Shown here in pieces: positions 47,103-52,770 of a DNA stretch of 52,770 nt (position 1 is the first letter of the stretch; every line of letters begins with the position of its first letter). The notes beneath the pieces are model-generated. The model saw only the letters and a list, made by a program, of their open reading frames with translations. It was not told the origin of the DNA and did not search any database. This stretch comes from Phage PEA2-3, in sequence record MW508890.1; one strand, written 5' to 3'. The position numbers were made by a program, and so were the translations under genes.

Positions 47103-47773
47103 TTGTGTAAACTCCTGTACCGTTGTATCAGAACTTGTTTGTTATCAACATATTCATCATTATAAGTGAAGTCGCTATCAATGTACATCATTAATTTGCT
47201 ACGATCCATTAAAATATCACTTGGACCTGATTGCTTGATTGTACTGATAAACATGTTGTCGATACGGAGTAAGTCTTTTGCGTGTTCTTCAAGGGCCGAA
47301 AGTATCAACTCGGCACCACCTACAATCCAGACGTCAGTACCTCTGGATTCAAGGTCTGCTGCCATCTCACCCAGATTATTGTAGCCTTCTGAAGCCATAA
47401 TCTGGCGAGATACCGGCAGCAGTATTCTGTGGGCTGACATAGGCAGACTCATAGTCATATACGTATTACGACCGGCTAACAATACGCTATGCCCGACCAT
47501 TTTTACCGTTACATCTGCTATCATATTTCGCAACTGGTCATTTGGGAATTGTCCACGTAGTTGCTGATATGCATTATAGCCTGGTTCTGTCGCAATTGAA
47601 TTAGTCATAGTCCTGAAAAAGAGCATGTCTGACGGACATTTCCATGGTAGACCCGATTTAGGAAGCGCACGAACCTCTTCCATGGTCTTGCACGAGTCAA
47701 CCTGATGCTTCATAAACTCCGGAGACAACCCGAATTCCCCATTTTGGCCCATTGCGAAGATTATATTAATCAC
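47099..47773 (-). CDS. folA: Dihydrofolate reductase
   Basis: Aligns by eye to DHFR: MINIIFAMGQNGEFG, LPWKCPSDMLFFRTMT, VLLAGRNTY, VWIVGGAELI; longer than bacterial DHFR (an insertion). Confidence 0.7.
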   Translation of the reverse strand: MINIIFAMGQNGEFGLSPEFMKHQVDSCKTMEEVRALPKSGLPWKCPSDMLFFRTMTNSIATEPGYNAYQQLRGQFPNDQLRNMIADVTVKMVGHSVLLAGRNTYMTMSLPMSAHRILLPVSRQIMASEGYNNLGEMAADLESRGTDVWIVGGAELILSALEEHAKDLLRIDNMFISTIKQSGPSDILMDRSKLMMYIDSDFTYNDEYVDNKQVLIQRYRSLHK

Positions 47774-48263
47774 CTAAAAAGTCCCCAGTAGTGTCGGTCA
47801 AAAGCGAGTTCATAACGTCTTGTGGCAGTATAGCAGGATGGTTACCTGTTTCGATTTTTGGCTTAGTTTTTGGCGCTTTTTGGCGCTCTATATACTCGTC
47901 ATGGGCCTTACAAATGGCATTTACGATGAAATCATGCTGATATGCGTACCATTCATCGTTTTCTGGGTCGTATTTAAGGCCAACATAGTTCATCAACGAC
48001 GACATTACGTGAATGCCTTCGTGGGAAATGGTGTTGTACTTCAGGTCGTCCGGGTGGTACAGTTCGACGACGATTAACAGGTACGGATAGCTAACGCGAG
48101 AGAACGTAAAGGTAGATGCATTACGCGTTTCTCGGTCATTCCAGTTGCCAAAATCAGGCAAATCCATCAGTTTTTGGAGCTCTTCGTGCTCTTTTTCGCT
48201 ACAAACGATAGCCAATTGAGGCGGATATGGCTCTAATTGAACAATTTTCATAATGTTACCCAC
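47766..48263 (-). CDS. Hypothetical protein with HExxH motif
   Basis: 165 aa with HEGIH; first minus-strand gene leaving the control region. Confidence 0.35.
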   Translation of the reverse strand: MGNIMKIVQLEPYPPQLAIVCSEKEHEELQKLMDLPDFGNWNDRETRNASTFTFSRVSYPYLLIVVELYHPDDLKYNTISHEGIHVMSSLMNYVGLKYDPENDEWYAYQHDFIVNAICKAHDEYIERQKAPKTKPKIETGNHPAILPQDVMNSLLTDTTGDFLGD

Positions 48264-48486
48264 AAGTAGGAGACCGTGAGGCCGTTTGATGATTCACATT
48301 AATGATAGCGCGTGGAGGAGAGAAAGTACACCACTTTTTAGTGAGTGTCTACACAATTTCCGAAAAATATAAAAAAATTTTAGAGGGGCTTCACTTATTA
48401 TTGTGTTAAGCAAAAGGTTAGCTCCTGTCGTATCACTCTGATGATGATTGGTCCTGATAAGGAGAAAATACCAAAAAATAAAAAAA

Positions 48487-48560
48487 TTCCGCTGGCTCCT
48501 GGCGGATAGCACCCCTGCGAAATTACCCCCCGCCGCACCTATTTCAATTGAAATGATTAC
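48487..48560 (+). repeat. Direct repeat unit, copy 1
   Basis: ttccgctggctcct ... gcacccct ... ccccccgccg ... atttcaattgaaatgattac. Confidence 0.6.
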
Positions 48561-48662
48561 TCTGGTAACTATTATGATTGGTACAATTACCGTGTGAACT
48601 ACTTCGGCCGTTATAGCACAAAGCGTCTATAATTCAGATTGAAATTATATTTTTAGAAATAA

Positions 48663-48735
48663 TTTCGCCGGCTCCTTTAAGTGGCACCCCTATGTTATTA
48701 TAACCCCTGCCGACCATTTTGGATTGAATAATTAC
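48663..48735 (+). repeat. Direct repeat unit, copy 2
   Basis: tttcgccggctcct ... gcacccct ... cccctgccg ... ttttggattgaataattac; same block order as copy 1, about 176 bp downstream. Confidence 0.6.
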
Positions 48736-49101
48736 ATGTGAAACTATATCAATTGCATATGAGAACCACTCTCAATTGCAAGTGATTATCATTTCTAAAA
48801 ACTTGCATAAACTTACAAATAAAAGGTGTACAATCAAGAGTGATTGGACTATTATATATTTATTGAATGTGATGACCAAGTGACCAGTCAACTGGTCTGG
48901 AGGGTATTAGTATGGTTTAATTTGGGTAGGTAGTACTTAACCAGTCAACAGGTACATCTGGTAGATGTCAATGGTACCTTTTGCTCTTTAACAATCTGGT
49001 AACATGTTTCTTGTTGATAGTAACACTAGTAATAGTTTCAACCAGTGACTATTGGTAACAGTAGTCACAACTGGAAACTAGTACAAGAGGTGACTATTAA
49101 G

Positions 49102-49248
49102 ATGGACAACTACACACTTTGGTATGATACCAATGAAGGGCTTTGGTGTGTCAATATAAACAATGGTCCAGTACCAGACTTTGAGTCAATGGATGTGGAA
49201 GATTGTGTTGACTTTATCCAATCCCAAGTTATTAAATATCAGGAGTAA
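49102..49248 (+). CDS. Hypothetical small early protein
   Basis: Start set at ATG 49102 after agaggtgac; track ORF began at 49045 inside an operator-like inverted repeat. Confidence 0.4.
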   Translation: MDNYTLWYDTNEGLWCVNINNGPVPDFESMDVEDCVDFIQSQVIKYQE

Positions 49249-49252
49249 TAAG

Positions 49253-49426
49253 ATGAAAGTTTTAGAATTGTCCCAAGAAGAACTGGAATTATTGGTTGAC
49301 CAACTGGACACAACCTTATTTATGGAAAGTGAACTACTGGAAGTGGATAAGGAGTATGGAAGGGATGTCAAAGACCTGGAAGTGAGGGTCAAGTTACTCC
49401 AATCAATTCTGGATAAGTTGAAGTAA
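49253..49426 (+). CDS. Hypothetical small acidic early protein
   Basis: ATG 49253 after aggagtaataag; 57 aa. Confidence 0.45.
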   Translation: MKVLELSQEELELLVDQLDTTLFMESELLEVDKEYGRDVKDLEVRVKLLQSILDKLK

Positions 49427-49521
49427 TTTCCAACAATGGGGACTTGGTAAAAGTCCTCATGATTGGATTTACTTGTCAAGGATTGACACCTATCAAAAAT
49501 TCTATCAATGAGGATACATCA

Positions 49522-50076
49522 ATGACTAACTATGTTTACCTGACTTCCGCTTTTTCTGTTGAGTCTGTAAAATCTGGTCTGACTACTGAAAGTCTTGGGA
49601 CTATTGTAGTGCAGATGGATAGTCTTCAGTACTTTGCCAATAACCAGATCATTAAGATGATTAAGTCCCTTAATGATGAAAGTTCTGTAAGTGTCAAGGA
49701 CTCAAAAGAAGTGTTGGTCAAGGCATTGTTTGATGAACTGAACCAACTGGAAGTGGAAGAGGTCAAAGTTGTGGCATCAAAATCTTCCAATGGCGGGGCC
49801 CGGAAGTCATCTGGTCCATCAACCAAGGACACTTGTTATCTGGTGTTTAAGGATTATAACCTGATGGATAAGGAAGATTCCAAATTGGCACTAGTTGATG
49901 CCATGAAAGCCTGTGGGATGGAGGCGGATGACATCAAAGCCAAAAGAGTTATCCAGTCATATATGTCATACTACCGGAATGATGTAAAATCTGGTAAAGT
50001 GACTGAGGGCAAGTCAGTAACTGGCAAAAAACCTGATACTGAAGTAAAACCTGAAACCCAAGAAACTGAAGAGTAA
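49522..50076 (+). CDS. Hypothetical early protein
   Basis: ATG 49522 after gaggatacatca; 184 aa with Lys/Glu-rich C-terminal tail. Confidence 0.45.
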   Translation: MTNYVYLTSAFSVESVKSGLTTESLGTIVVQMDSLQYFANNQIIKMIKSLNDESSVSVKDSKEVLVKALFDELNQLEVEEVKVVASKSSNGGARKSSGPSTKDTCYLVFKDYNLMDKEDSKLALVDAMKACGMEADDIKAKRVIQSYMSYYRNDVKSGKVTEGKSVTGKKPDTEVKPETQETEE

Positions 50077-50140
50077 TTTTTGAGATGGCACTCAAGTAGT
50101 GCCATCAATTGAAATTATTCACAATCAACAGGAGAGAAAC

Positions 50141-50299
50141 ATGCTTAAAATTAAACTGACCAAAGACCAGGCAATGGCTTTACGGGATATGATGATTGAG
50201 CTGGAGAAGATGGGCACTTTTTCTGATAGTTCTCACACTTCAACTCTTGATTATATTGTTGAGTCCATTGATGACAAATTTTCAGGTTCTGAGGAGTAA
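50141..50299 (+). CDS. Hypothetical small early protein
   Basis: ATG 50141 preceded by the conserved leader attgaaattat...tcaacaggagagaaac; 52 aa. Confidence 0.45.
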   Translation: MLKIKLTKDQAMALRDMMIELEKMGTFSDSSHTSTLDYIVESIDDKFSGSEE

Positions 50300-50304
50300 T
50301 CAAA

Positions 50305-50562
50305 ATGACTGACATTGAGATGAAAAAAGAGCTGGACTTTTATGCTGAGCAGTATTGGGCTGAGTGGGATGAAGGTTCACAAGAATTTGCGGAACTGGTG
50401 ATAGATTCAGGAATTGATGAAGTGCGCCAACACGCCTACATCATCAACATGAATCTGGCGTCAATTATGGGTATCATCGCCAGCGAATTTTCTGATGGCG
50501 AGCGGGACCATGAAGACGTTGTAAGACTGGCAAAAGTTATGGCTTGGGTGGATGCATTATGA
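50305..50562 (+). CDS. Hypothetical small acidic early protein
   Basis: ATG 50305 after gaggagtaatcaaa; 85 aa. Confidence 0.45.
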   Translation: MTDIEMKKELDFYAEQYWAEWDEGSQEFAELVIDSGIDEVRQHAYIINMNLASIMGIIASEFSDGERDHEDVVRLAKVMAWVDAL

Positions 50563-50732
50563 AAGATCTGAAATTGACTGAAGACGAATTGGCGCACCTG
50601 ATTGAATTACTGGAATCAAATGCCCAAATTGTGAAAGATCAAATTTCTGACACTGTTGGCGGTTCCAAAGAGTTTGACAACTTGATGGAAGACTTCCGGC
50701 TGACAATTCAGATCGCAACAAAGTTAGTATAG
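50559..50732 (+). CDS. Hypothetical small early protein
   Basis: ATG 50559 overlaps the upstream stop (ATGA); 57 aa. Confidence 0.4.
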   Translation: MKDLKLTEDELAHLIELLESNAQIVKDQISDTVGGSKEFDNLMEDFRLTIQIATKLV

Positions 50733-50800
50733 TTTCAACAATGAACTATCCAAAGTTGTGATAGTTCATGATTGAAATTATATCAACAGGAGAGAGAAAC

Positions 50801-51190
50801 ATGTACAGTGCAAAATGCGAAGATGGTATCTATACCGTATATTGTGACGGTAAAGTACTCAAAGTTCTGCCAAACGCCTTCAAGTTTGAGCAATTCATGA
50901 CGGTGTTGTGGGAGAACCAGGAGATTAGTCGGGAAGACATTATCGACCTGATGAATCCCTTGATGGGGTACCATCCAATTCGTGAGTTTGACAGTCGTCC
51001 AACTTGGTACAAGCTGGAAGATGGCAAAGTCTGGGAACAAGCCTGGGACAGATTTGAAGGTGGTTACGGCCACTGGACGGTTTACGTCGATGGTGATGAC
51101 GCCCAACGCTACTGGGAAGCAATCAAAAATTGTGCGACCCGGGATGTGACTGATCCGGAATACGACGAGTCAAAATTTGAGGTCAAGTGA
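50801..51190 (+). CDS. Hypothetical early protein
   Basis: ATG 50801 preceded by a second copy of the conserved leader; 129 aa, Trp/Tyr-rich. Confidence 0.45.
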   Translation: MYSAKCEDGIYTVYCDGKVLKVLPNAFKFEQFMTVLWENQEISREDIIDLMNPLMGYHPIREFDSRPTWYKLEDGKVWEQAWDRFEGGYGHWTVYVDGDDAQRYWEAIKNCATRDVTDPEYDESKFEVK

Positions 51191-51390
51191 TGCCACTAGT
51201 CAAATTTACGACGGTAGACCTTGCCCATGGATTGCCACCCAAAGCTGAACAAAAATTCTTGACAGTTGAGGAGTGGCATATCTGGTGCCAGTCAGCTCTA
51301 AAATCTGGGGCTAAACGCACTAATGGTGGAAAAGTGTTTACTCGCTTCAATAAAGAGTGTATAATAGTAGTTCAGGTAATGATAGAGTGA
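51190..51390 (+). CDS. Hypothetical small early protein
   Basis: ATG 51190 overlaps the upstream stop by one nucleotide (track ORF starts at the GTG 3 nt earlier). Confidence 0.35.
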   Translation: MPLVKFTTVDLAHGLPPKAEQKFLTVEEWHIWCQSALKSGAKRTNGGKVFTRFNKECIIVVQVMIE

Positions 51391-51617
51391 TATTAGTCAA
51401 GTCCTGGCGCTGACAGGGCTTGATTAAAAGCTGGTAATTAATTCAATCCTGAGTATTTGATGAAAGTCCTCATGCTTGAATTAACCCACAAGTGGAGGCC
51501 TTATGGTCCGCTGTAAACATGTTGTTGAGTATTCTGTTGTGAATCCTGCATATGCTGAAGGTCGGGCGATGAGGAAGCTGGTTGGGGTCTTTATGATAAT
51601 TCTTATGGTATTGGCTT

Positions 51618-51863
51618 ATGTTTTCTAAGGATGATTTATATGACATTGCTCGACGTGTTAATCAACGCGATTTATCTGGTGTTACCGATCTTTTTTCTGC
51701 CGGCACTTCTGACGATGCGGTATTACGCGAAGCGGAGCGGCGCCAAGCAGAAATACAAAGAACTGCAAGCTGCTGGGATTATCAACCCCCGAAAACTGTA
51801 CCGTTAACCTGGGTTGACATGACAATTTGGTTATTGAATAAACTTGGAATAAGGAGCAAATAA
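51618..51863 (+). CDS. Hypothetical protein
   Basis: 81-aa track ORF with no obvious RBS; an alternative-frame small ORF with an RBS overlaps it. Confidence 0.3.
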   Translation: MFSKDDLYDIARRVNQRDLSGVTDLFSAGTSDDAVLREAERRQAEIQRTASCWDYQPPKTVPLTWVDMTIWLLNKLGIRSK

Positions 51864-52042
51864 TGTTTAAATTCTTACAACGTAACCCTGTCAAAGGTGG
51901 CATGCAATACTGGGTGGACATCCATGGCGGTGAGTATATGATGATTGTCCGCGATGGTAAACCTGCTGAAAGCTCTTTCGCTAAAGGTTGCAACGTTTAC
52001 AACCAATTGTTTGAGTTCCTGGTTGAAGGTGATTACTTGTGA
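51863..52042 (+). CDS. Hypothetical small protein (59 aa, below the ORF-track cut-off)
   Basis: ATG 51863 after aaggagcaaata, overlapping the upstream stop (TAATG); read MFKFLQRNPVKGGMQYW ... EGDYL by hand. Confidence 0.45.
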   Translation: MFKFLQRNPVKGGMQYWVDIHGGEYMMIVRDGKPAESSFAKGCNVYNQLFEFLVEGDYL

Positions 52043-52224
52043 TTGGCTTAATCCTGGCAACATGTGTGGCTACTCATGATTGTAGTTACAAAATTGTTGA
52101 ATACAAACCTGAATGGACTACCGTTGAACAATGTGTCGCTGATAGTCCATACACCCTGCTAAATCTTGGTATTATCCCTGCCAAAAATCAGCGTGTCATT
52201 TGTGACGAGCTGAAACAAGATTAA
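52039..52224 (+). CDS. Hypothetical small protein
   Basis: 61-aa ORF with GTG start overlapping the upstream stop. Confidence 0.3.
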   Translation: MIGLILATCVATHDCSYKIVEYKPEWTTVEQCVADSPYTLLNLGIIPAKNQRVICDELKQD

Positions 52225-52652
52225 TTAACGTGATATTGAGTGCCGGGCGCAACGTAATAGTTGTAGACCCGGCAAAATTGTTCCCATGTTAATTCTACTA
52301 GACCCACAAAGAGGCGGTTCGATGCCTCGCTAAAAGTCGTGCCACTTGGAAAACAGTCAATCACATCAGCCTTATTCATCACCACGGTAGGCTGTTTTCT
52401 TGGTAGTTCGTATATCAGTACCGGCATCTTGTTTTGAGCCTTTGCCGATGCCGCACACTGTCTCCACCATGTTCCGATAGACTTGGTATTGTGCTTCTTC
52501 AGTTCAACGCTGAAAAACGGTACACCCAGCAAGTCATCCCCGCCATTAATAGACTGTTGAAGATTGCGCTCAACAGTTAATCCGAACGAGCTATTGAACT
52601 TCTTAGCCATTTTGCGCTCAAAGTTCTGTCCTTTCTGCCGAATATTAACCAT
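52221..52652 (-). CDS. Hypothetical protein, possible PD-(D/E)xK-type nuclease
   Basis: 143 aa; GGDDLLGVPFFSVELKK gives a D ... ExK arrangement; weak motif-level inference. Confidence 0.3.
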   Translation of the reverse strand: MVNIRQKGQNFERKMAKKFNSSFGLTVERNLQQSINGGDDLLGVPFFSVELKKHNTKSIGTWWRQCAASAKAQNKMPVLIYELPRKQPTVVMNKADVIDCFPSGTTFSEASNRLFVGLVELTWEQFCRVYNYYVAPGTQYHVN

Positions 52653-52770
52653 TTATTTAGCCTCGTATACAATTCAAAGATTTGGTAACCTGCAACATTG
52701 ATAAATATTGTAACACATCTTTTTTATAGTGTAAACGTCTACAGATTTATTTATCAATCCGGCTTTTTTA

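Follow-up and report, generated by a model that had tools for sequence, protein, structure and literature searches.

Positions 49102-52224 of phage PEA2-3 hold a dense run of small plus-strand genes, and the locus raises the question of what such genes contribute to infection. The window analysed here, namely the whole 52,770-nucleotide stretch of sequence record MW508890.1, has the gene order and length of a complete Rosemountvirus (BP63-like) genome, a 53-kb phage of the virulent myovirus type. A preliminary description had regarded the block as candidate early host-takeover or anti-defence genes. Our analysis suggests that it is probably the host-interaction small-gene module of a direct terminal repeat (DTR) of ~4.3 kb, which would be read by the host polymerase as translationally coupled cassettes bounded by stem-loops and would yield binder-type or membrane proteins. 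One locus of the module, g10, appears to encode two proteins in overlapping frames.

A megablast search with positions 48500-52770 matched 60 related phage records, nearly all of the classified ones belonging to Rosemountvirus, with Escherichia phage JEP7 (97.3%) and Salmonella phage brunost (96.8%) as top matches; a more sensitive search extended the set, at 74-76% identity, to Erwinia phage SOI901 and to Loughboroughvirus, the sister genus (S144, ZCSE2, SE4, AEV23). Related phage records number 61. Two relatives have been described in print. The ‘cluster E’ of S144 is the same gene set, ORF71-80, with a GC content of 38.6% versus 46.1% and without assignable function (Gambino et al. 2020, PMC7432712), and fHy-Eco03, a Rosemountvirus, has direct terminal repeats of 3699 bp with 11 genes, determined with PhageTerm (Kasurinen et al. 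2021, PMC8145870). According to its record, these 11 genes are a nuclease, one further open reading frame (ORF) and the small-gene block g03-g11. Judged by sequence comparison, the PEA2-3 block is an object already known, namely the orthologue, by descent, of S144 cluster E and of fHy-Eco03 g03-g11. The three share the position between a Ku-like/DHFR cluster and the nuclease, low GC, the core genes and homologous repeat boundaries. They differ in gene number (12 in PEA2-3, 9 in fHy-Eco03 and 10 in S144), in the placement of g3, which is not the same in PEA2-3 and fHy-Eco03, and in the lack of counterparts of PEA2-3 g2, g4 and g11 in S144.

The block comprises 12 genes with 13 products, in one-to-one correspondence with birk gp09-gp20. 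The small, dense cluster of the preliminary description is borne out, its count of ‘about ten’ being low, and its size range of 48-184 amino acids (aa) was close to the actual 41-184 aa, the lower limit being set by g9. The genes are as follows, core and accessory referring to presence or absence among 16 compared genomes, including Loughboroughvirus and an Erwinia phage (pI, isoelectric point).

49102-49248, plus strand: g1, 48 aa, pI 4.05, core; phrog_5461 (PHROG E = 3.8e-11).
49253-49426, plus strand: g2, 57 aa, acidic, probably helical, accessory.
49522-50076, plus strand: g3, 184 aa, core; phrog_9997; two small three-helix domains and an acidic low-complexity tail (predicted).
50141-50299, plus strand: g4, 52 aa, acidic, accessory; missing from 8 of the 16 genomes.
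50305-50562, plus strand: g5, 85 aa, pI 4.1, accessory; confined to this phage subfamily.
50559-50732, plus strand: g6, 57 aa, acidic, probably related to g2.
50801-51190, plus strand: g7, 129 aa, pI 4.5; two modules, residues 1-56 and 57-129.
51190-51390, plus strand: g8, 66 aa, pI 9.1, core; in 16 of 16 genomes at 37-100% identity, within the subfamily only.
51503-51628, plus strand: g9, 41 aa, core, C-terminal transmembrane helix (predicted); phrog_10979 ‘membrane protein’.
51618-51863, plus strand: g10b, outer frame, 81 aa; orthologue of fHy-Eco03 g05, the toxic gene; hydrophobic end segment.
51640-51807, plus strand: g10a, nested frame shifted by one base, 55 aa; N-terminal transmembrane helix (predicted) and basic tail.
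51863-52042, plus strand: g11, 59 aa, accessory; absent in Loughboroughvirus, SOI901 and SE1_KM.
52039-52224, plus strand: g12, 61 aa, GTG start; invariant hydrophobic N-terminus MIGLIL--C and conserved cysteines (orthologue alignment).

Purifying selection acts on all 11 single-frame genes, the proportion of non-synonymous differences (pN) lying far below that of synonymous differences (pS) in every sufficiently diverged comparison, for example 0.01/0.26 for g4, 0.01/0.25 for g5, 0.02/0.54 for g6, 0.03/0.40 for g7 and 0.07/0.43 for g11. Because pN is so much smaller than pS, these patterns of substitution identify the ORFs of the block as real, conserved genes and not as chance ORFs. The linked stop and start codons noted earlier are present as ATGA, TGATG, TAATG and GTGA junctions, with overlaps of 4 nt at g5/g6, 1 nt at g7/g8 (TGATG), 11 nt at g9/g10, 1 nt at g10/g11 (TAATG) and 4 nt at g11/g12. 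The compositional claims also held: GC content is 0.414 in the block and 0.464 elsewhere in the genome, where no window of equal size among 454 sampled was as low; TTA and TTG make up 40% of its leucine codons versus 23% (chi-square p = 0.003); and the pI lies below 5.2 for nine of the 13 products, aspartate and glutamate accounting for 17.2% of residues versus 11.8%.

The location of the block is described by the following feature.

48494-52770 continuing through 1-12 (~4289 bp), unstranded: DTR predicted by homology to Sz and fHy-Eco03, holding the leader, all 12 small genes and a PDDEXK nuclease gene.

The record of phage vB_SalM_Sz (96% identity to the window) has 4263 bp repeated exactly at its two ends, and the repeat boundaries of Sz and of the far more divergent fHy-Eco03 map to the same window positions, between 48493 and 48494 and between 12 and 13. 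At both boundaries an A-tract precedes TTNCGCT^GGC (the caret marking the cut), in inverted orientation (48481-48499; 52760-52770 plus 1-20) and cut at the same place. The similarity between the two boundaries ends exactly at the cut, which speaks for real ends defined by an enzyme. The equivalent boundary motif of fHy-Eco03 is TTGCC^GG(G/C)GC at both ends, and the motif is probably the recognition site for terminal-repeat generation. In S144, restriction mapping placed a physical genome end at a gap just upstream of the equivalent cluster (PMC7432712). By homology, the whole block would lie inside the DTR of PEA2-3.

An element of ~80 nt that starts with the boundary motif (…TTCGCCGGCTCC…GCACCCCT…ACCCC.GCCG.ACC.TTT) was observed at 48481-48560, with a second copy at 48657-48735; the copies lie 180 bp apart, going into the repeat, are ~70% identical and are conserved across genera. 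Related C-rich motifs (ACCCCC, TATCCCC, TTACCCCC) occur at 160-210, on the unique side of the other boundary. The element and the C-rich motifs are possible packaging or replication signals.

The left repeat boundary is separated from g1 by 608 non-coding nucleotides. These, and the longer gaps between the genes, contain the following predicted elements.

48827-48855, plus strand: candidate sigma-70-type promoter (TGTACA, 17-nt spacer, TATTAT), from a promoter scan and alignment.
48943-48985, plus strand: leader stem-loop with a U-rich tract; consensus fold with 2 compensatory pairs in 7 lineages; -10.4 kcal/mol, z = -0.8 (weak).
49035-49078, plus strand: strong stem-loop, the first cassette-boundary hairpin, directly upstream of the g1 ribosome-binding site; -19.2 kcal/mol, z = -4.9.
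49429-49467, plus strand: stem-loop of the g2-g3 gap, which folds at -26 kcal/mol, z = -2.6.
50084-50106, plus strand: stem-loop of the g3-g4 gap; -14.8 kcal/mol, z = -2.5.
50733-50777, plus strand: stem-loop of the g6-g7 gap; -17.9 kcal/mol, z = -3.6.
51393-51427 and 51438-51484, plus strand: two stem-loops of the g8-g9 gap; -34.8 kcal/mol, z = -3.4.

The TGTACA -35 element and a -10-like hexamer (TATTAT, CATAAT or TATAAT) keep a fixed spacing in 10 of 10 aligned lineages while the spacer sequence varies. The hairpin at 48943-48985 looks terminator- or attenuator-like, and the stem at 49035-49078 shows a compensatory change from GTGAC/GTCAC to GAGAC/GTCTC in the fHy clade. Across the lineages, a conserved hairpin with a U-tract is seen ~90-125 nt after the promoter-like element, the intervening sequence being poorly conserved (48827-48990); it could mark off a short leader RNA, or form an attenuator, upstream of g1.

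Each intergenic gap longer than 60 nt contains a strong stem-loop (z from -2.5 to -3.6), and for this reason we divide the block into five cassettes, [g1-g2], [g3], [g4-g6], [g7-g8] and [g9-g12]. The gaps also share flanking repeats of families D2, D15, D19 and D20; the D2 element AAAGTCCTCATGNTTGNATT, for instance, is common to the g2-g3 gap and the gap before g9. Promoters inside the gaps were sought by the same scan, which returned weak 9-of-12 matches only, the overall count of sites lying near that in shuffled sequence, and an Rfam scan of 48000-52770 matched no family.

Comparison of relatives shows that gene content is mosaic and varies cassette by cassette. Direct repeats TTGAAATTAT...ATCAACAGGAGAGA at 50105-50137 and 50770-50795 bracket g4-g6, and the deletion in AV127 removes exactly g4-g6 between these repeats, leaving a hybrid gap (one breakpoint, resolved at base level). 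Both AV127 and emiel are without g4-g6, swi3 and emiel have another gene of 100 aa in place of g1-g2, an additional gene precedes g9 in brorfarstad, and g3 follows g8 in the fHy/KE26/SOI901 clade. Among the 16 genomes, g1, g3, g8, g9, g10 and usually g12, together with the neighbouring nuclease, form a core set present in most or all, and g2, g4, g5, g6, g7 and g11 form a patchy accessory set.

The g10 locus is annotated inconsistently in public records: at 51618-51863, JEP7, swi3, AV127, AEV23 and fHy-Eco03 (as g05) carry the 81-aa frame, here frame b, and birk, BP63, S144 (as ORF72) and KE26 carry the nested 55-aa frame, here frame a. Both are open in 19 of 19 sequences, namely 17 aligned phage genomes and two metagenomic contigs. 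Given the frame-a protein and phage codon usage, the probability that frame b is open is 0.006-0.043 per lineage, and none of 594 control windows of 56 codons from the primase gene was open in the equivalent frame in any of three genomes. The g10a protein is 69-82% identical between the lineage of the window and distant lineages, exceeding the conservation of frame b in most comparisons. Synonymous variation is suppressed in frame a, with a pS of 0.28-0.43 against 0.41-0.82 in neighbouring genes (0.55-0.82 except in one comparison), and its third positions vary at 26 of 56 codons against 42 of 55 in controls (p = 0.002). In the 18 codons of frame b past the frame-a stop, variation falls mainly on third positions (6/3/13 by position, p = 0.003). 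Within the overlap the second positions of frame a are the least variable, which excludes coding by frame b only as an explanation. Simulations agreed, each frame being two to three times more conserved than the other alone imposes (0 of 1000 simulations reached the observed identity in either direction), with a null model that assumes saturated synonymous sites, an assumption only roughly true here.

The start sites are likewise conserved. That of g10a is an ATG with a Shine-Dalgarno sequence, AAGGA or GAGGAG, 7-8 nt upstream, kept in all genomes. That of g10b is an ATG in the 11-nt overlap with the g9 stop, without a clear Shine-Dalgarno site, an arrangement that implies translational coupling of g10b to g9. 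From these patterns of sequence change we conclude that both frames are genes. A single-gene explanation, in which the other frame stays open through recent segment exchange or through constraint on an RNA or DNA element, could draw on the unusually high nucleotide conservation of the locus, on a frame-b pN about equal to pS in the overlap and on the fact that both proteins are known here from sequence alone; set against the 19 open sequences, the closed primase controls, the third-position variation of the frame-b tail, the second positions of frame a, the simulations and the lack of an Rfam match, we regard it as quite improbable.

This locus is the sole part of the module with a demonstrated host-damaging effect, which was observed in a relative. 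Eight of the nine fHy-Eco03 block genes were cloned and screened in E. coli, and only g05 was clearly toxic, with a next-generation sequencing (NGS) ratio of 0.003, a plating ratio of 0.16 and growth arrest on arabinose induction (PMC8145870). The seven others are the orthologues of g12 (fHy-Eco03 g03), g11 (g04), g9, g8, the g7 C-module and g6 and a g1-like gene; the g6 orthologue, named g10 in fHy-Eco03, was borderline in plating (0.46) and not toxic by NGS (PMC8145870). Because these seven are non-toxic, general host shut-off is not a property of most of the block. The host-takeover reading of the preliminary description thus stands in part, with the toxic g10 orthologue, the DTR location and the conserved, predicted sigma-70-type promoter indirectly in its favour and the seven non-toxic orthologues against it.

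The toxic clone spanned the annotated g05 ORF and therefore also carried the nested gene with its own ribosome-binding site; since it held both frames, the published toxicity can be assigned to neither product. The nested frame within g05 or ORF72 is mentioned neither in the fHy-Eco03 paper nor in the S144 paper, nor elsewhere in the literature that we searched, which likewise contained neither a transcriptome nor a later study of Gp05 nor any work on anti-defence in this phage group. It is conceivable, if on the unlikely side, that the conserved g9-g10 locus is a dual-frame membrane effector whose growth-arresting agent is the nested 55-aa g10a and not the annotated 81-aa ‘Gp05’, with g10b as its partner or regulator and the overlap of the frames locking both genes, and possibly their expression, together. 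A published idea that Gp05 resembles residues 670-710 of RecG was unsupported by a PDB sequence search.

The products themselves gave few clues to function. As the preliminary description had anticipated, recognisable motifs are lacking: all products were without matches in Pfam and NCBIfam, ten were without matches in PADLOC, and PHROG matches carried no specific function bar the generic ‘membrane protein’ of g9. PDB sequence searches with g3, g7 and g10b returned nothing significant. In large protein searches the families of g3, g10b and g7 did not extend beyond this phage group, except for a few T4-like relatives of g3, whose family comprises 7 representative clusters among 1.84 billion proteins. 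The AlphaFold2 model of g3 has a mean predicted local distance difference test (pLDDT) score of 65, rising to ~80-88 inside each domain, and a fold search with it gave no match; the model of g7 is confident and has no fold relative. Families of the Ocr, ArdA, Acr, Gad, Tad and Acb types were not matched in Pfam, NCBIfam, PHROGs or PDB sequences, which are general libraries, no dedicated anti-defence profile set having been searched. The anti-defence part of the preliminary description thus received no positive evidence from profile searches or from the two structure models.

The reading that we favour, and hold to be probable with real reservations, runs as follows. Each virion DNA would carry one copy of the module at each end. 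Host RNA polymerase would start at the predicted promoter at 48827-48855 and read rightward through a structured leader of 240 nt, the five cassettes being read in turn, with stem-loops that probably process, stabilise or attenuate the mRNA and with genes translationally coupled within each cassette. The products would be small binder-type or membrane proteins and not enzymes. The conserved core (g1, g3, g8, g12 and the membrane set g9/g10a/g10b) is presumably needed in every host, and the swappable acidic genes (g2, g4-g7, g11) would be the best candidates for host-specific takeover or counter-defence. Several points weigh against this scheme. The repeat of PEA2-3 is known only by homology, from the repeats of two relatives. 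We infer the early timing from position and a predicted promoter, as we infer that the promoter is used, what the stem-loops do and how each protein functions. The region holds 20 promoter-like sites against 13.1 +/- 3.6 in shuffled sequence, not clearly above expectation, and a terminator-like hairpin stands between the promoter and g1, so that read-through is assumed. Of the eight block orthologues screened in E. coli, seven showed no toxicity (PMC8145870). Finally, no product resembles a known takeover or anti-defence protein by sequence, nor do the two that were modelled, g3 and g7, by fold.

Three other explanations were weighed against this one. The block might be a dedicated anti-defence island in which at least one of g1, g2 and g4-g7 inhibits restriction, BREX, retrons or CBASS by mimicry or binding, the manner in which Ocr, ArdA, Gad and Tad proteins act. 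The candidate proteins are small, acidic (pI 4.0-4.6) and non-enzymatic, their orthologues are non-toxic, their presence is mosaic among close relatives, and the region is likely to be expressed first, as its predicted promoter and position suggest. The searches in Pfam, PHROGs, NCBIfam and PDB sequences, which found no known family, and the confident g7 model, which has no fold relative, speak against it. So does the DNA of fHy-Eco03, which already resists nine of ten restriction enzymes through a modification encoded elsewhere and not identified by its authors (PMC8145870); if PEA2-3 DNA is modified likewise, restriction evasion would be handled outside the small-gene block. An anti-defence role for the block survives circumstantially, through small acidic non-toxic proteins and mosaic presence, and we rate the dedicated island as possible and rather doubtful.

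A role at the envelope is, in our estimation, less probable still: g9, g10a, g10b and g12 would form a membrane module for superinfection exclusion or envelope control, and the toxicity would be a side effect of overexpression, small membrane peptides being commonly toxic when overproduced. One transmembrane helix is predicted in each of g9 and g10a, g10b has a hydrophobic end, g12 combines its hydrophobic N-terminus with conserved cysteines, and the g9 and g10 pair occurs in every genome compared, g12 in most. The proteins nevertheless have no homology to the exclusion proteins T4 Imm and Sp, T5 Llp or P22 Sie, a canonical lipoprotein signal would need a longer hydrophobic stretch than that of g12, and the g9 orthologue alone is non-toxic. 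The block could lastly serve the DNA ends of the phage itself, in replication, recombination or packaging of the terminal repeat, given its co-location with the PDDEXK nuclease, the repeat boundaries and the duplicated 80-nt element, and given a helix-extended-helix pattern in the N-terminal domain of g3 that we presume to be SAP/HeH-like. Half of the genes are dispensable between close relatives, however, acidic proteins of 50 aa are poor candidates for DNA enzymes, and no nucleic-acid-binding family was matched, all of which makes this explanation improbable. The host-interaction module of a terminal repeat remains our preferred reading.

Known systems provide parallels for this module. By function and layout, its closest models would be the pre-early (first-step-transfer) region of T5 and the host-takeover module of SPO1, in which small orphan genes in long terminal repeats are read by the host polymerase and some harm the host. 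The likeness lies in many small, mostly orphan genes within a long DTR, ~8% of the virion DNA. The differences are a lack of homology to T5 A1, A2 and dmp or to SPO1 gp37-60 in Pfam, PHROG and NCBIfam searches and, with respect to T5, the lack of evidence for two-step DNA entry in PEA2-3; moreover, one locus only is known to be toxic, in a relative. T4-type plastic regions are reportedly built of promoter-early stem-loop (PeSL) cassettes, a description attributed to Arbiol and colleagues in 2010. PEA2-3 shares with them small orphan genes split by repeated stem-loop gaps and modules gained or lost at these gaps, and distant homologues of g1 and g3 sit in the tRNA-e plastic region of T-even phages; the cassette sequences are nevertheless unrelated, promoters are not evident inside the PEA2-3 cassettes, and PEA2-3 is a 53-kb myovirus that is not T4-like. 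Nested out-of-frame phage genes are exemplified by lambda Rz/Rz1 and phiX174 A*/B/K/E. There, as at g10, a short membrane protein lies wholly within a gene in another frame, with its own ribosome-binding site and conservation of both; g10 differs in having no sequence relationship to them and in belonging to a terminal-repeat module, not a lysis cassette.

Individual genes of the module differ in their distribution among relatives. Where the PEA2-3 allele of g1 is present, Loughboroughvirus included, the protein is 93-100% identical. Against BP63, its synonymous sites are saturated (pS 0.75, pN 0.03), with pS values of 0.12-0.43 in neighbouring genes, so that g1 has the look of an old allele that recombination has exchanged and whose protein is very strongly constrained. 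An alternative allele, 40-49% identical, occurs in six genomes, g1 is replaced in swi3 and emiel, and a weak homologue is found in phage T2 between e.8 and e.6. The homologues of g3 in the T4-like tRNA-e region are ~28% identical, for example VR7 ORF147c. The g2 gene is absent or replaced in 10 of 16 genomes, and its BP63/AV127 allele also matches g6, at 32% identity. An N-terminal pattern, MK-L-LT--E(L/V), is common to g2, g6 and g4. Paralogy of all three was not upheld, pairwise BLASTP being non-significant (E = 0.13-0.7). We consider g2 and g6 probably related by sequence, and the kinship of g4 to them, suggested by the N-terminal pattern, unproven.

The C-module of g7 stands alone in the fHy and KE26 clade, and g11 is 100% identical to fHy-Eco03 g04. 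The predicted helix of g9 has a hydropathy maximum of 2.93 and agrees with a TMHMM note in the S144 record. For g12, comparison with S144 gave a pS of 0.69 and a pN of 0.12, and its conserved N-terminus suggests that the protein is possibly exported. A lipoprotein assignment was rejected as unproven, only 8 residues preceding the cysteine.

The neighbourhood of the block contributes one further gene to the repeat.

52221-52652, minus strand: convergent nuclease gene inside the repeat; Pfam PF24608 PDDEXK_15 (E = 5e-18); phrog_244.

Its product is labelled a ‘RusA-like Holliday junction resolvase’ in RefSeq relatives; the Pfam match is to PDDEXK_15, a phage putative PD-(D/E)XK endonuclease, and not to the RusA family. 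A likeness to T5 D14 was pointed out by the S144 authors (PMC7432712). In the interval beyond it (52653-52770 plus 1-368), PEA2-3, JEP7 and brunost are without a 507-bp ‘anti-repressor Ant’ gene, which lies between nuclease and primase in birk, emiel and the SPLA phages, and LPSEYT has a homing endonuclease there. The nuclease-primase interval, which lies at the right repeat boundary or beside it, is a second variable spot. On the other side, the leftward cluster opens just beyond the repeat with a gene (47766-48263, minus strand) whose product is a ‘putative Ku protein’ (Mu Gam-like) according to the S144 record, which would imply an end-protecting, anti-RecBCD role; Pfam gives this label no support, and the only match is to the function-less phrog_1365.

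Two public records call for caution. The record ‘Listeria phage 220426122051’, whose host is given as Listeria monocytogenes, is a member of the same phage group at 93% identity, and in the record of Klebsiella phage AEV23 an E. coli IS5 transposase adjoins the block. Faulty labelling or assembly seems to lie behind both.

The module adds one example to a well-known pattern, and both the cluster and its low GC had already been published for relatives. That prior publication, the terminal-repeat location and the dual coding had escaped the preliminary description. What is added here is the DTR placement in PEA2-3, the cassette structure, the split into core and accessory genes, the conserved candidate promoter of the leader and the dual-coding g10. 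Rosemountviruses and Loughboroughviruses are under development as biocontrol or therapy phages against Salmonella, E. coli and Cronobacter, and the terminal-repeat module, ~8% of their packaged DNA, is annotated entirely as ‘hypothetical’; its core and swappable genes are now sorted. Because a block in a terminal repeat exists in two copies, its deletion or engineering must consider both. The sole experimentally toxic gene of the group consists of two overlapping genes, which alters the follow-up of the antimicrobial lead ‘Gp05’. If g10a proved to be the growth-arresting agent, tentative as that idea is, the locus would represent a new kind of terminal-repeat-borne host-arrest or entry-control device in Rosemountvirus, Loughboroughvirus and related Erwinia phages.

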